From a virus, in IMG/VR virus record IMGVR_UViG_3300037782_000115, positions 32,001 to 96,000 of that record: DNA of 64,000 bases; one strand, 5' to 3'. The notes below the pieces were generated by a model. It worked only from the letters and a program-made list of their open reading frames with translations. It had not been told where the DNA came from and searched no databases. Positions within the stretch are counted from its first letter, which is position 1. Each line of letters opens with the position of its first letter. The translations under genes and the position numbers were made by a program. Of this stretch, positions 429 through 55,788 are shown piece after piece.

Positions 429-889
429 GAAAGATCAACGCACTGGCAAAGATCGGTCCGATCGCGATCGGGTATACCCAGGACTGGATCGGCTACGAAG
501 ACTGTCCGTACATGAATCGATGGATCCTGTGGTTCGGGCTTGGAACGCTCAGAGTCCACAGGTTCATGCGAGACGACGAGGATCGTGACCTGCACGACCA
601 CCCGTGGGCCTTTGTGACCATCCCCCTGCAAACCTACCACGAGGCGGTAACGGTCTCAGGCGAAGCCTCAGACTCTCTCAGGACGCTCAGGACGGTCAGG
701 CGGTTCAGGCCCCATTTCAGACGGGCGAAGCACAGGCACTCGGTGAAGCTCATCACGAGACCGACGTGGACGATTGTCATCACGGGGCCCAAGACGCGCA
801 GTTGGGGATTCTGGAGGCACGGAGAGTTTGTACACTGGAGGACATGGGTGGGCCAGAACCCGACCGCCCCATGCCAAGACCCGGAGTAG
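425..889 (+). CDS. Cupin-fold phage protein
   Basis: GTG start overlaps the HNH stop; HRFMRDDEDRDLHDHPW...HRHSV...WTIVITGP...WGFW pattern. Confidence 0.7.
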   Translation: MRKINALAKIGPIAIGYTQDWIGYEDCPYMNRWILWFGLGTLRVHRFMRDDEDRDLHDHPWAFVTIPLQTYHEAVTVSGEASDSLRTLRTVRRFRPHFRRAKHRHSVKLITRPTWTIVITGPKTRSWGFWRHGEFVHWRTWVGQNPTAPCQDPE

Positions 890-7065: not shown

Positions 7066-7970
7066 AGGTCGAGGGAACGCCGTCGCCATGGTTTGGTGGG
7101 AAGTGGGAGATGCCGTGGCTTCTCGACCTATTCCCTGACCCAGAACAAATCCACACGTATGTCGAGCCCTACGGGGGCATGTGCGGCCTCATGCTCAGGA
7201 AGATGCCTTCCCCGGTCGAGGTTTACAACGACGTCAACAGCGCGTTGGTCACCTTCTGGAAGGCTGTCAGGCTCTACCCTGACGAGCTTGCTCGCGCGGT
7301 CGAGCTCACACCGATCAGCTACGAGGAGTGGAGCAGCGCCAAGGCAGCGCTGCGAGAGCTCAAGGACACAGACGGACTCGACAAGGATCAGATCGTTGAG
7401 GTCGCCAGGCAGTTCATCGTCATGTCCAGACAATCGATGGCCGGCGCTCCCGGCAGATCGTGGCAGGCCTCGGTCACCCATAGCCGGCGAGGAATGGCAT
7501 CGACGTGCTCGGCGTGGCTTAACCTCCCCGAAACCGTGGTGCAGTGTGGGCAGCGGTTCAAGTCGGTGCAGATTGAGCACAGGCCGGCTGTGCATGTGAT
7601 TAAGAAGTACGACACACCAAAGACACTGTTCTACCTCGACCCCCCCTACATGCCCGAAACATGTAAGACGGGGGTGTACTCGGCCTCCGGCGGCGCCGAG
7701 ATGAGCCCGGCCGACCACGCCGTAATGCTTCGTGCAATCAGGGATATCGAGGGATCGGCGGTATTGTCGGGATATGACAGCGACCTGTACAACAAATGGC
7801 TCGACAGATGGGGGTGGCAAACCAAGGAAATCGAGGTCCCGTGCAGATCCGCGGTCACTACATCGGGGTCAGTCGCCGAGAGGACAACCCGGATCGAGAA
7901 GGTTTGGTATAAATACAACGACGGAATGAAGCCGGAAGCGGCAAAAACCCTGTTCTGTGACAACGGATAG
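7062..7970 (+). CDS. Dam/D12-class N6-adenine DNA methyltransferase
   Basis: PWFGGK, YVEPYGG, EVYNDVN, FYLDPPY, LSGY; GGAGG RBS, ATGA overlap. Confidence 0.92.
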   Translation: MKVEGTPSPWFGGKWEMPWLLDLFPDPEQIHTYVEPYGGMCGLMLRKMPSPVEVYNDVNSALVTFWKAVRLYPDELARAVELTPISYEEWSSAKAALRELKDTDGLDKDQIVEVARQFIVMSRQSMAGAPGRSWQASVTHSRRGMASTCSAWLNLPETVVQCGQRFKSVQIEHRPAVHVIKKYDTPKTLFYLDPPYMPETCKTGVYSASGGAEMSPADHAVMLRAIRDIEGSAVLSGYDSDLYNKWLDRWGWQTKEIEVPCRSAVTTSGSVAERTTRIEKVWYKYNDGMKPEAAKTLFCDNG

Positions 7971-8451: not shown

Positions 8452-9141
8452 ATGGTAACAAAGATCAGGCTGTCGAGGTCGTTCAAGACCCGTGTTGAAC
8501 CGACGCCACTGGTGGTCCAGTGCGCCGGCATGTTCGGCATAGGCGTGGACGAGGACATCGACATCACGCTGTACTCCGGCCTCCAGGTCACGCTTGGCGA
8601 GGGCCGGGTGATCTACATCACCGGAGACAGCGGGGCTGGCAAGTCGTGCCTGCTCAGAGATATTGTGTCCCACAAGGAAACAAACGCGAAGTTCCGGGTA
8701 GTCTCCGACCGCGACATCGAAGACATGCCGGACAAGCCGCTAGTCGATCAATTCGGCGACATGCCGCTAATCAAGATCGGTGAGCTTCTGGCGTTTGTCG
8801 GCATATCAGAGGCGTTTGTCTATCTACGAAAGCCCAAAGAACTATCAGACGGTCAACGCTATCGGTTCAAGCTGGCGATGATGATCTATGAATCGATCAA
8901 GGAGACCGAGGACAAAAGAACGCCGCTGATCACCGTCGACGAATACTTGGCGTTCCTCGACCGGGAGACAGCGAAGAATGTGGCCTATCAAACCAGGAGG
9001 GCGTCGAGCAAATACGGATTCTGTGTTGTGGTGGCGACCACACACGCGGACATAGCCGAAGACCTACAAGCGAACCTCACAATCAAGTTACAAATGAACA
9101 TGCCGGCGGAGATCAAGAACACCGCCCTGGCCGGGGACTAA
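8452..9141 (+). CDS. Stand-alone ABC-type ATPase (ATPase half of the COG2401-like ABC-GNAT family)
   Basis: Walker A GDSGAGKS; signature LSDGQRYRF; Walker B ITVDEY; VATTH; no permease nearby. Confidence 0.88.
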   Translation: MVTKIRLSRSFKTRVEPTPLVVQCAGMFGIGVDEDIDITLYSGLQVTLGEGRVIYITGDSGAGKSCLLRDIVSHKETNAKFRVVSDRDIEDMPDKPLVDQFGDMPLIKIGELLAFVGISEAFVYLRKPKELSDGQRYRFKLAMMIYESIKETEDKRTPLITVDEYLAFLDRETAKNVAYQTRRASSKYGFCVVVATTHADIAEDLQANLTIKLQMNMPAEIKNTALAGD

Positions 9142-36490: not shown

Positions 36491-36566
36491 ACGGCGGATG
36501 TTCCACGTGGAACACTCGCAAATCGCCGCTCGAGCCCTTTCGGGCGCGATCGGCGTGATCGGGTCA
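36491..36566. repeat. Intergenic ~75-bp repeat, copy 1, containing a parS-type palindrome (36499-36514)
   Basis: TGTTCCACGTGGAACA plus GCCC-TTTC-GGGC hairpin; near-identical to 37035-37122. Confidence 0.9.
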
Positions 36567-37034: not shown

Positions 37035-37122
37035 ACGGCGAATGTTCCACGTGGAACACTCGCAAAACGCCGCTCGAGCCCTTTCGGGCGCGATCGGCGC
37101 GATCGGCGTGATCGTCGGGTCA
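37035..37122. repeat. Intergenic repeat, copy 2, containing a parS-type palindrome (37043-37058)
   Basis: TGTTCCACGTGGAACA; extra GATCGGCGC unit. Confidence 0.9.
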
Positions 37123-52921: not shown

Positions 52922-53128
52922 ATGATCACGGCTGCCAAAATGAGATCGATTGCTGGAAGGTGCGCGAGCGACAGGAGGTGCGAGCAGACCTTTGGTGATT
53001 GCCAGAACCGTTCGTGGTGGGTTGCCCGGGTCATGGCCAGGGGCAGGCGCGGTGTGCCAGGCAGGGTGGACTCGCCCAGGGGCAAGGCTGTGGCGGGGGA
53101 GCGCGAGACAAGCCTGTCACACACTTGA
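52922..53128 (+). CDS. Small basic hypothetical protein
   Basis: GAGGGGAG RBS; 68 aa. Confidence 0.35.
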   Translation: MITAAKMRSIAGRCASDRRCEQTFGDCQNRSWWVARVMARGRRGVPGRVDSPRGKAVAGERETSLSHT

Positions 53129-53153
53129 CGAATACAGCACGGACGATTACAGT
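53125..53153 (+). promoter_or_regulatory. Promoter for the tRNA
   Basis: TTGACG-17-TACAGT, 9 nt upstream of the tRNA. Confidence 0.6.
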
Positions 53154-53162
53154 ACGATAGAC

Positions 53163-53236
53163 AGCGGGGTGGAGCAGTTCGGTAGCTTGCTGGGCTCATA
53201 ACCCGGAGGTCGCGGGTTCAAATCCCGCCCCCGCTA
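53163..53236 (+). tRNA. tRNA-Met (CAT), initiator type; CCA not encoded
   Basis: AGCGGGG/CCCCGCT acceptor stem; GGG-CTCATAA-CCC anticodon arm; GCGGG-TTCAAAT-CCCGC T arm; A11:U24. Confidence 0.95.
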
Positions 53237-53685: not shown

Positions 53686-54510
53686 TTGGAGATCACAATG
53701 TCAGCAAACGAAGATCAGGGTCACAACGTACGCGGGCTAACGGAGCCGGCAATCCGATCCATCGCCAGCCTTGTCGCCGGATCAATGAAGCCGACAACGT
53801 ACAAATACCCTGGTGTAGACGAGCGGGTCGGCACCGTCGACAAAGAAGGTGTAATCACAGACCAAGTATGGGTGCCGCCAAGGCGATACATGGCCGAATC
53901 CGTCGACGGCCTTGTTTCCATGCTCGAAGACCTGTCGGATGTTCATGAGGACATCAGGATCTTTGTCGGCCCCGAAGAGGTTGTTGCCATCCTGGGCGAG
54001 CGGGGGCACAGGCAGGACCGGATCATCATGCCGCTTAAAACGTGTGAATCATACCATTTCATCAAGGACGGCGTGAGGGTCACGCAGCAGGAGTTTGTAT
54101 TCAAACTCCGAACGCTGTACAGCGGCAATTACTCACCGGACACGCTGCTTCCGACCATCCGAAGCCTCAAGCTCAAGAAGACGGCGAGCGGCACCGCGAG
54201 GGTTGAGCATGGCAGCGAAACGGTTGACCACGAGATTGAGGCGATGATCCGTGGCGAAAACGGCGACATCCCGGACGAGATCACACTCAACACGCCGGTC
54301 TACAAACAGATCGCGATGGCTACGCCGAACGAGAAGCAGGTCATCCGGTGCGCGCTGCAACCGAATGTCGAAGACAAGACCTTCACGATCCAGCCTCTCG
54401 AGGGGGAGGTTATCCGAGCCGCGAAAGGCGCCAGAGACCGAATTGTGATGGCTCTGAAAAACGTGGGTCTCACGGGCGCGAAGATCTACGTCGACGCGAA
54501 GTACAACTAG
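53686..54510 (+). CDS. Conserved phage protein (DUF2303-like)
   Basis: SVDGLV...TQQEFVFKLR...IPDEITL..PVY. Confidence 0.65.
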   Translation: MEITMSANEDQGHNVRGLTEPAIRSIASLVAGSMKPTTYKYPGVDERVGTVDKEGVITDQVWVPPRRYMAESVDGLVSMLEDLSDVHEDIRIFVGPEEVVAILGERGHRQDRIIMPLKTCESYHFIKDGVRVTQQEFVFKLRTLYSGNYSPDTLLPTIRSLKLKKTASGTARVEHGSETVDHEIEAMIRGENGDIPDEITLNTPVYKQIAMATPNEKQVIRCALQPNVEDKTFTIQPLEGEVIRAAKGARDRIVMALKNVGLTGAKIYVDAKYN

Positions 54511-54697
54511 CTTTGTTCGCGCGGGAGCGGGGCATGGTGTCCGGGGAGAGCCCGGAACGCACGTTGTAGAGGTGTTCATGAAACACCCCGCCGAAGCGCT
54601 TTGAAGAGGGAACACGCCTGACCTTCTTGGCCAGTTCGAAGCGAAAGCACCGTCATGGCCGGCGAAATGGCGCGACAGCCGGGAGAGACCGGCATTT
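54511..54697 (+). ncRNA. Candidate structured ncRNA upstream of the tRNA-like element
   Basis: GCGGGG/CCCCGC, TCCGGG-GAGAG-CCCGGA, GGTGTT/AACACC, CGCTTTGAA/TTCGAAGCG, GCCGG-GAGAGA-CCGGC. Confidence 0.55.
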
Positions 54698-54817
54698 GCC
54701 TCGGGGCGCATGGGTACGCGCCACGCACGGACGGCAGCGGGTGAGGGTTAACAACCCCCGCGTGAGGAAAGCCGATAGCCCCGTGTCTCATCACAGGTTC
54801 GAGTCCTGTCCGAGGCG
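54698..54817 (+). ncRNA. tRNA-shaped RNA with expanded anticodon domain
   Basis: GCCTCGG/CCGAGGC acceptor stem; GCGC-ATGGGTAC-GCGC D arm; ACAGG-TTCGAGT-CCTGT T arm; ~65-nt nested stem in place of the anticodon arm. Confidence 0.75.
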
Positions 54818-54876
54818 TTATGTCGACACGCACCAGGCCTCACAGGTCGACTGGTGCTGATCCGGTAGCCACCCGC

Positions 54877-54914
54877 GAACGCCGCCTGCTTCTTTGTTGA
54901 GGCAGGCGGCGTTC
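54877..54914 (+). terminator. Long GC hairpin closing the ncRNA region
   Basis: GAACGCCGCCTGC...GCAGGCGGCGTTC, 13-bp perfect stem. Confidence 0.6.
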
Positions 54915-54969
54915 TTGAGTGTGCCGCACAAGAACAGTACGATGCAGACGGTCGTCGAGAGGAGGATGT

Positions 54970-55788
54970 ATGCAAAGGCACGTCACGTGGTTCTACGACA
55001 CGGTACCGTTCTACAAAACAACGGTCGGCAACGCTCGGTGTGTCTATGGACTCCGTGCTGACGTCCGACACAGGACCGACCCGCTGAACCTCATGCATGA
55101 CCAAAACGCGCTGATCTCGGCGATGGCGATGATCGCGCTCCTGCCAGACACAACCTTCTGTCTGCACACAGCACACCCGGACCGGCTTGAGGCCATGATG
55201 ACCGCGGCCGATTTCCAGCACAAGCTTTTGGTCGCATCGAGTGCGCATGTAGAAAATGCACCGTGTCTGCTGCCGAGGCAGTGCCGTCTGATTGAACAAC
55301 TATCGCACGGATCCACCTATCACGGTCTCCCAGGAAGCAGCCCAGACTCGGCCGTGCCCGGATTCTTGCCCCTCCCAAACCTGATGCTCGGCGTTGAAAT
55401 CGATGACGACGAGGAAATGGGTGCGGCGAGAGTGAGCAGCCTGTGCCGTACTCCGGCGTCGTGCCGCTACTTGCTGGTTTACAAAGACACGGGGCCGCTC
55501 TGCCAGGCCAGGCGAGTCGGCGAAGAAACACTGGTTTCATACGCATTCACCGAAGGAACCGGCGGTTCGCTACCAAACCTGCACGCCGTCGGCGTGGTTG
55601 GCGGCGCAATGGACCTGGACAGATACAAGGCGTGGGAACAAGCCATGCGCAACACGGGCGCGGTCCTGCTGGACTGTGCAGAGCACGTTTTTGGAGAGCC
55701 GCACACCAGCGGCAGAGGGGAAACGAACAATGGAAAGACTCCCAAGACAGCTGCCGATGAGTCAGAGGCAGAAGTACGCAGAGATTGA
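54970..55788 (+). CDS. Divergent Gp37/Gp68 (DUF5131)-like protein
   Basis: TFCLHTAHPDRL, PLPNLMLGVEI, RVSSLCRTPASCRYL; GGAGG RBS. Confidence 0.6.
   Translation: MQRHVTWFYDTVPFYKTTVGNARCVYGLRADVRHRTDPLNLMHDQNALISAMAMIALLPDTTFCLHTAHPDRLEAMMTAADFQHKLLVASSAHVENAPCLLPRQCRLIEQLSHGSTYHGLPGSSPDSAVPGFLPLPNLMLGVEIDDDEEMGAARVSSLCRTPASCRYLLVYKDTGPLCQARRVGEETLVSYAFTEGTGGSLPNLHAVGVVGGAMDLDRYKAWEQAMRNTGAVLLDCAEHVFGEPHTSGRGETNNGKTPKTAADESEAEVRRD

Follow-up and report, generated by a model that had tools for sequence, protein, structure and literature searches.

A tRNA-shaped RNA gene lacking a usable anticodon arm in an uncultured phage from pond metagenomes

Introduction

tmRNA and the YrlA / bacterial Y RNA modules are non-decoding RNAs that mimic the top half of tRNA. 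tmRNA has no D stem, is ~360 nt long and carries a tag ORF, whereas the ends of YrlA lie on the anticodon-stem side and Ro is its partner. Phage T4 produces two small, stable, non-decoding RNAs, species 1 and 2 (rnaC and rnaD), which are co-transcribed and processed with the phage tRNAs and have no known function. In the engineered "tRNA scaffold" of Ponchon and Dardel, the anticodon stem is extended with foreign RNA, and the product is said to be processed by tRNA enzymes and to be stable. Lak megaphages carry tRNA genes with "enigmatic" introns of unknown mechanism (Devoto et al., 2019; PMC6784885), and phage tRNAs have been reported to counter host defences that cut tRNA (PMC10264068, PMC11464382).

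Here we describe an element from an uncultured phage in which a tRNA frame carries a long arm in place of the anticodon arm. It shares with canonical bacterial and phage tRNA (RF00005), and most of all with tRNA-Asn, the 7/5 acceptor/T-arm helix, the T-loop invariants, the GG of the D loop and G73; unlike canonical tRNA, it lacks a 5-bp/7-nt anticodon arm at the standard distance and has a G for U8 and a one-base linker. Its topology is opposite to that of YrlA in that it ends at the acceptor stem, and no YrlA or Y RNA match to it was found in Rfam. The tRNA scaffold is an artificial design, whereas the segment carried by the element shows no evidence of being a defined module. As in the Lak megaphages, extra sequence interrupts a phage tRNA gene and no known splicing mechanism applies; the Lak exons (PMC6784885), however, join into a recognizable tRNA with a named anticodon under eukaryote-mode tRNAscan, and excisions from the element give none. 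Coordinates refer to the window, the 64,000-nt stretch of the viral record that was analysed, and are collected in Table 1.

Table 1. Features of the tRNA-like locus and its surroundings, in window coordinates.
Feature	Coordinates	Strand	Support or remark
Sigma-70-like promoter TTGACG-17-TACAGT, 10 nt before tRNA-Met	53125..53153	+	
Initiator-like tRNA-Met(CAU), first gene of the putative unit	53163..53236	+	ARAGORN; Rfam tRNA 65.9 bits
Non-coding gap holding the element (459 nt), between DUF2303-like and DUF5131-like genes	54511..54969	+	
tRNA-shaped element (120 nt, the last being the discriminator G, 54817)	54698..54817	+	each pair checked
Acceptor stem, 5′ strand GCCUCGG (partner 54810-54816)	54698..54704	+	7/7 Watson-Crick pairs
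D arm, GCGC / loop AUGGGUAC / GCGC	54706..54721	+	direct reading and pair check
Extended arm replacing the anticodon arm (closing 6-bp helix 54725-54730 / 54781-54786; interior 50 nt)	54725..54786	+	
Apical hairpin GGGUU-AAC-AACCC	54745..54757	+	pair probabilities 0.57-0.84
T arm, ACAGG / UUCGAGU / CCUGU	54793..54809	+	5/5 pairs
Hairpin directly 3′ of the element	54825..54862	+	
16-bp G+C-rich hairpin followed by UUCUU	54877..54914	+	includes a 13-bp perfect inverted repeat

Results

The phage and its probable host

The element lies in an IMG/VR virus record of 107,112 bp (60% G+C, direct terminal repeats) that originates from pond metagenomes. Seven pond-metagenome DNA runs contain the stretch, and there are no RNA runs among the sequencing runs listed as containing it; the contigs aligned from the pond DNA runs showed no variants over the stretch and hence no signal of microdiversity. 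Its terminase is of the GpA type and has no close cultured relative, being <30% identical to any phage record. Judged from its sequence, the phage looks like one with a bacterial host, because it has a sigma-70-like promoter, two parS-type palindromes and a tRNA-Met like those of bacterial phages. The palindromes, at 36499-36514 and 37043-37058 (TGTTCCACGTGGAACA), are perfect over 16 bp, with 0 expected by chance, and possibly allow the phage to hijack host ParB. Genes similar to the tRNA-Met occur, as tRNA-Met, in 357 records of the phage collection, and the hosts listed for those records are bacteria. It is the only standard tRNA of the phage and is initiator-like (CAU anticodon, three G-C pairs beside the loop, A11-U24), with a Watson-Crick A1-U72 pair instead of the bacterial C1xA72 mismatch; its sigma-70 promoter is close to consensus, and no terminator precedes the next ORFs. 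An archaeal virus with a bulge-helix-bulge intron had been suggested by the A1-U72 pair of this tRNA and by an archaeal tRNA-Asn match described below. That idea was dropped in view of the sigma-70-like promoter, the bacterial-type parS sites and the similarity of tRNA-Met to hundreds of bacterial phage tRNAs. Genes for a tyrosine integrase, a TROVE/Ro protein, RtcB or an RNA ligase, a sigma factor and a CCA-adding enzyme were each looked for in the phage genome and not found.

A tRNA frame that is not due to chance

Numbered from its first base, the element has a frame of three stems (acceptor, 1-7/113-119; D, 9-12/21-24; T, 96-100/108-112) and an extended arm of four helices (28-33/84-89, 35-38/74-77, 40-43/61-64 and 48-52/56-60). 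When checked pair by pair, all 35 of the 35 drawn base pairs exist as standard pairs, one of them a G-U. The 7-bp acceptor helix abuts the 5-bp T stem, and beyond the acceptor the flanks add just one U-G pair. The T-loop invariants G53, U54, U55, C56, A58 and C61 are all kept (GG-UUCGAGU-CC at 54796-54806), and the loop of the 4-bp D stem contains GGG, so that the elbow-forming GG is present; the last base of this loop is C. An earlier note on this DNA had described the 7-bp acceptor stem, the 4-bp D stem with a GG-containing loop and the perfect UUCGAGU T arm, as well as the lack of U8, of a canonical anticodon loop and of CCA, and pair checking together with direct reading of the sequence bore out both descriptions.

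Several core positions deviate from the standard. Position 8 of the element is a G and not U8, and it forms a single linker base where a 2-nt U8-N9 linker is usual. The discriminator is a G (G73), no CCA is encoded, and the trailer reads UUAUG. The element therefore falls outside the canonical D-arm/core pattern (G18-G19, U8, A14, A21 and a 2-nt 8-9 linker), and it likewise falls outside that of the canonical anticodon arm (a 5-bp stem and 7-nt loop with U33 and a purine at 37, directly after position 26). Because the D-arm junction is off-standard, with one linker base and without U8, a proper L-shape is not assured. The cloverleaf frame was nevertheless retained in the minimum free energy (MFE) fold of its 420-nt context.

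The frame was also sought with a scanner that demanded four features together: a G53...C61 T arm whose loop reads TTCRA, a 7-bp acceptor stem abutting it, a GG-containing D arm and a closing helix of 5 bp. Over the whole 107-kb genome there were two matches, tRNA-Met and the element at 54698-54817. Across 200 dinucleotide-shuffled genomes, the mean number of matches was 0.115 for the T arm plus acceptor, 0.03 when the D arm was added and 0 with all features. Since the scanner retrieved the element and tRNA-Met alone, and nothing in the 200 shuffles, the tRNA frame is not a product of chance.

Decoding and splicing

ARAGORN at its default made no call on the element, with or without introns, and no match to RF00005 was obtained from Rfam even at E ≤ 10. 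Only when introns were allowed and the threshold was lowered, an extension of a check proposed in the earlier note, did ARAGORN offer a model, a tRNA-Ala(AGC) with a 49-nt intron. This model demands that the frame be shifted, that the intron lie at 32/33 and that position 37 be a pyrimidine. Under standard numbering, G-G occupies positions 32-33 and is paired with C-C; a 7-nt loop with U33 is therefore impossible. All 910 single-segment removals from the element were then submitted to ARAGORN, and 0/910 were accepted at default. The answers obtained near the threshold contradicted one another (Ala-AGC, Gly, Ser, Pro, Arg and others), some with loops of the wrong size.

Known splicing signals were sought as well. 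The element has no 3-4-3 bulge-helix-bulge: its sole 4-bp helix (35-38/74-77) is bordered by 1 unpaired nt on each side of the 5′ strand, and on the 3′ strand by 9 nt distally and 6 nt proximally. Neither a group I ribozyme core nor any other Rfam intron was matched within the element, the insert being just ~50 nt, and ARAGORN in tmRNA mode (-m) was silent on it even at lowered threshold; Rfam gave no tmRNA match, and the interior is too short for one. The earlier note had likewise called the element too short for a group I intron or a tmRNA.

Anticodon-arm length is closely conserved among active tRNAs (PMC7609411). Because the only anticodon-format loop of the element lies ~15 bp beyond the normal place and no excision rebuilds a standard anticodon arm, the element almost certainly cannot decode, and the structural premise of the earlier note, a tRNA-shaped RNA gene without a usable anticodon arm, is borne out. 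Its suggestion of a novel small intron fared less well. In its fullest form, this explanation holds that the element is a working tRNA whose unconventional intron is removed by the host, for example by a double-strand-specific cut followed by RtcB-type ligation. The low-threshold tRNA-Ala(AGC) model would agree with it, as would the presence at the arm tip of GUUAA, which is part of an Asn anticodon loop, and the introns of unknown mechanism reported in Lak megaphage tRNAs (PMC6784885). Against this stand the 910 failed excisions with their contradictory identities just below the threshold, and the shifted frame, 32/33 intron and pyrimidine 37 that the Ala model needs, given that position 33 of the standard frame is never U. 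In addition, there is no bulge-helix-bulge, the host looks bacterial, and the phage has neither RtcB nor an RNA ligase. We consider a spliced, working tRNA very unlikely.

The extended arm

Within the arm, the closing helix (28-33/84-89) had pair probabilities of 0.86-1.0, and the interior pairs were ambiguous. The nested fold as drawn has an energy of -46.4 kcal/mol, compared with -53.0 for the MFE fold, in which the interior bases have other partners, and several folds are near-isoenergetic. Robust pairing within the insert is confined to the closing helix and the apical GGGUU/AACCC hairpin. When the arm alone was compared with shuffled sequences, 27/200 shuffles folded as well (z = -1.16). 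The nested domain proposed in the earlier note is therefore real in the sense that every drawn pair exists, but its inner fold is unsupported, given this z score and the near-equal alternatives. The same division applies to its remark that all stems are intact, unlike those of a decayed tRNA. As the insert folds no better than shuffles, and as unbroken stems say little in a sequence of 68% G+C, the remark carries weight for the tRNA frame and is uninformative for the insert.

When redrawn, the tip of the arm gives a loop of seven nt (UUAACAA) on top of three G-C pairs; this loop has the format of an anticodon loop but lies ~15 bp too far from the elbow. At the 5′ junction, a tandem CACG-CACG (25-32) permits two possible registers for the closing helix. 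The arm stretch has no second copy in the phage genome, and the idea that the insert is a repeated or mobile element was rejected for this reason. Two further candidates were rejected: a kink-turn or hammerhead in the GUGA/GAAA stretches, whose required partner bases were absent on inspection, and a pairing between the GUGAG motifs and CUCAU in the variable loop, which at just 5 nt is indistinguishable from chance.

Searches for homologues

A homologue search of the kind suggested in the earlier note was run over phage records, IMG/VR and JGI metagenome contigs, and it returned no homologue. In particular, none was obtained by blastn of 54500-55000 against 50,697 phage records, by a gapped loop-motif scan of the JGI metagenome contigs, or by exact and gapped motif scans of IMG/VR, in which the matches were ordinary tRNAs, tmRNA-like ends and coding DNA. 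The protein encoded by the upstream neighbour matched only itself among 5.8 billion proteins, and single-protein locus scans with the neighbour proteins found nothing. A covariance model built from the element (R1) was run over 80 loci and three whole viral records and detected no homologue there.

Relatives of the phage were approached through the terminase, for which proteins of 42-65% identity exist, the closest (61-65%) on contigs of 93-110 kb. Nine loci with terminases 42-58% identical were examined, and none had a tRNA or an R1 match; for the relatives at 54-58%, the DNA searched extended to either side of the terminase gene by at most 10 kb, short contigs allowing less. The relatives examined share little synteny with the phage upstream of the terminase.

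These results bear on the possibility that the element is a relic, that is, a phage tRNA gene, probably of the Asn type, which was disrupted in a recent event by insertion or expansion of ~50 nt in its anticodon arm and has no function. An orphan is what such a history would leave, and the element has no homologue in the collections searched and nothing comparable in the terminase relatives examined. An insert that folds no better than shuffles also fits, as do the deviations of U8 and linker length from working tRNAs and the tandem CACG-CACG at the junction, which resembles a small duplication scar. Neutral decay, however, would be expected to strike the stems too, and the frame helices are perfect and the T-loop invariants kept despite the changes in the core. 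Moreover, phage genomes rarely keep dead DNA, and the insert is neither repeated nor mobile in this one. Taken as a whole, these observations make a functionless relic somewhat unlikely.

Genomic neighbourhood and transcription unit

The gap that holds the element is non-coding: reading frames on both strands reached a best coding codon score of 0.05, compared with 0.17-0.36 in the flanking genes. The element shares the strand of its neighbours and starts 187 nt past the upstream stop codon. Neither the DUF2303-like nor the DUF5131-like neighbour is linked to tRNA biology, and no partner gene is evident.

Upstream of the element, the promoter before tRNA-Met is the sole promoter-like site that was found, and neither a promoter-like nor a plus-strand terminator-like site was detected between it and the element. 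Downstream, the fold of 54818-54930, which contains both hairpins, had a z score of -5.84. The hairpin at 54877..54914 is likely the intrinsic terminator of the unit; a consensus terminator scan missed it, probably due to the short U run after the stem. The simplest reading of this arrangement would be a single unit comprising the promoter, tRNA-Met, two ORFs, the tRNA-like element and the terminator. In both the element and tRNA-Met, CCA is not encoded and the discriminator is followed by UU, features that would suit the same 3′ processing route. The two hairpins, which occupy 54825-54926, are very stable; the second, whose 16-bp stem is perfect but whose U run is short, may also be a bidirectional terminator or a processing site. 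A downstream hairpin was considered as a duplicated T arm and rejected, as its alignment was no better than that of shuffles (32/300).

The position of the element, at the 3′ end of a unit that starts with a tRNA and between the last ORF and the terminator, is also what would be expected of a processing or stability signal acting in cis. The tRNA shape would then recruit RNase P and RNase Z and thereby set the 3′ end of the upstream mRNA, and the released RNA would have no job of its own. The only fully canonical part of the element is the acceptor/T-arm half, which is the part that RNase P needs, and the lower arm looks unconstrained. Yet a minihelix of acceptor and T arm would suffice for such a signal, and the element keeps a D arm with GG and a 6-bp closing helix; it also lies 187 nt past a stop codon and not at a gene junction. 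We regard a purely cis-acting role as unlikely.

Resemblance to Asn-type tRNAs

The best matches to the T arm and the 3′ strand of the acceptor were tRNA-Asn genes of diverse phages, along with some tRNA-Arg and tRNA-Ile genes. A 22-base probe from the T arm and acceptor had one exact match in 185,579 species genomes, a tRNA-Asn of an A+T-rich archaeal metagenome-assembled genome (MAG), and the identity to this gene extends over 26 nt. We take the match to be convergence within the Asn type and not a signal of the host. The archaeal gene (L019, 748-845, plus strand) encodes tRNA-Asn(GUU), is interrupted after position 37 by an intron of ~24 nt and was missed by ARAGORN in bacterial mode; it matches the phage element exactly in both acceptor stem and T arm. 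No match to the 3′ half of the element was obtained by blastn in E. coli genomes. An Asn-type anticodon loop ends (3′) in the five bases GUUAA, which also occur in the apical hairpin and may there be a remnant of such a loop.

In many temperate phages, attP includes a 3′ portion of a host tRNA gene, and the element could in principle be what is left of an attachment site, a host tRNA end copied for integration into a tRNA gene. This general habit of temperate phages is what speaks for such an origin. The phage, however, has direct terminal repeats and no tyrosine integrase, and the element includes a 5′ acceptor strand and a D arm, which are superfluous for an attP core. The lone exact probe match in the 185,579 species genomes, moreover, belongs to an A+T-rich archaeal MAG, an implausible host. 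An attachment-site origin is thus extremely improbable.

Discussion

The element has a non-random tRNA frame and a non-coding setting, and by standard criteria its structure fails as that of a decoder. The explanation we prefer, with a probability of roughly 0.42, is that it is a genuine tRNA-derived gene whose non-decoding RNA is processed by tRNA enzymes and acts in trans as a tRNA look-alike. The earlier note had offered a mimic, a processing signal or a tRNA with an intron; its premise of a tRNA-shaped gene stands, the intron is disfavoured, and the mimic is the reading we favour at the odds just given.

Under the preferred explanation, the element would be transcribed as the last part of the unit that runs from the sigma-70-like promoter before tRNA-Met to the hairpin at 54877-54914. 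As the acceptor/T-arm helix and the elbow of the element are intact, the transcript would be a substrate of RNase P, with a cut before 54698, and a 3′ endonuclease such as RNase Z would cut after the discriminator G, where UU comes next as in tRNA-Met. Addition of CCA would then yield a stable RNA of ~120 nt (123 with CCA). Such an RNA would combine an Asn-type-like top half with a lower arm ~3 times the normal length, and an arm of that length cannot span the ribosomal decoding and peptidyl-transferase sites. The look-alike would instead engage in trans a host or phage protein that reads the elbow and acceptor end of tRNA.

Changes have struck the core, U8 among other positions, yet none of the 22 pairs that make up the acceptor, D, T and closing helices is broken, which favours selection on shape over neutral decay, as an argument and not a test. 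The look-alike reading is further favoured by two phage contigs with the same design that ARAGORN likewise does not call, described below. Counting against it are the random-like, ambiguous fold of the insert, which gives no sign of a specialised module, the off-standard D-arm junction, the lack of a tRNA-like element near the terminase in relatives with 54-58% identity, and the fact that neither a homologue nor a partner gene was found.

A more specific version is that the stable, CCA-tipped, Asn-type look-alike is kept off the ribosome and serves as a decoy or inhibitor of a host tRNA-directed defence or tRNA-handling enzyme. Candidate targets would include anticodon nucleases, tRNases of the PARIS-like or Schlafen-like kind and maturation enzymes. 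We hold this version to be quite unlikely as stated. If it were true, the element would belong to a wider class, as yet undescribed, of phage tRNA mimics without a usable anticodon, and a non-decoding, tRNA-shaped RNA would widen the anti-defence theme from replacement tRNAs to pure mimics. The element would also draw attention to RNA genes overlooked by standard annotation. Coming from a single genome, it makes a weak case alone; together with analogous phage contigs it may define a new class of RNA.

Two such analogues were seen on unrelated IMG/VR contigs, at 7703-7801 (plus strand) of L070 and 570-683 (minus strand) of L075, where the anticodon loop of a full tRNA frame is replaced by a long hairpin. 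Their frames are near-identical (GGAUGGG acceptor, CCUC/GAGG D stem, UUCGAGU T loop) and their hairpins differ; neither was called by ARAGORN. By their appearance they belong to a family of phage tRNA look-alikes without an anticodon. With the element they share the acceptor/D/T frame, G or A at 73, UUCGAGU and a long helix that continues from the anticodon stem, but they keep U8-A9 and a standard D arm, and homology is limited to generic tRNA positions. It is through these positions that R1 scores them at 20-26 bits, so that the resemblance is one of design only. No published description of a tRNA frame with a hairpin replacing the anticodon loop was found in the open-access papers searched.

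Other unusual tRNA-like elements were noticed among the loci. Elements of ~80 nt in L009 (8889-8930, minus strand) and L010 (2752-2793, minus strand), and also in L028, L050, L062 and L063, resemble a lone tRNA-like domain of tmRNA, with GGGGGUG or GGGAGUG at the 5′ end, GGUUCGAC, a T arm and a 3′ CCA, and seemingly have no room for a tag reading frame. A jumbo-phage tRNA cluster on a 208-kb viral contig (L057) contains several over-long (93-123 nt) tRNA-like matches between standard tRNAs, for example at 8815-8928, 271-393 and 7604-7713 (all on the minus strand); two of the over-long matches are called by ARAGORN, with odd anticodon loops.
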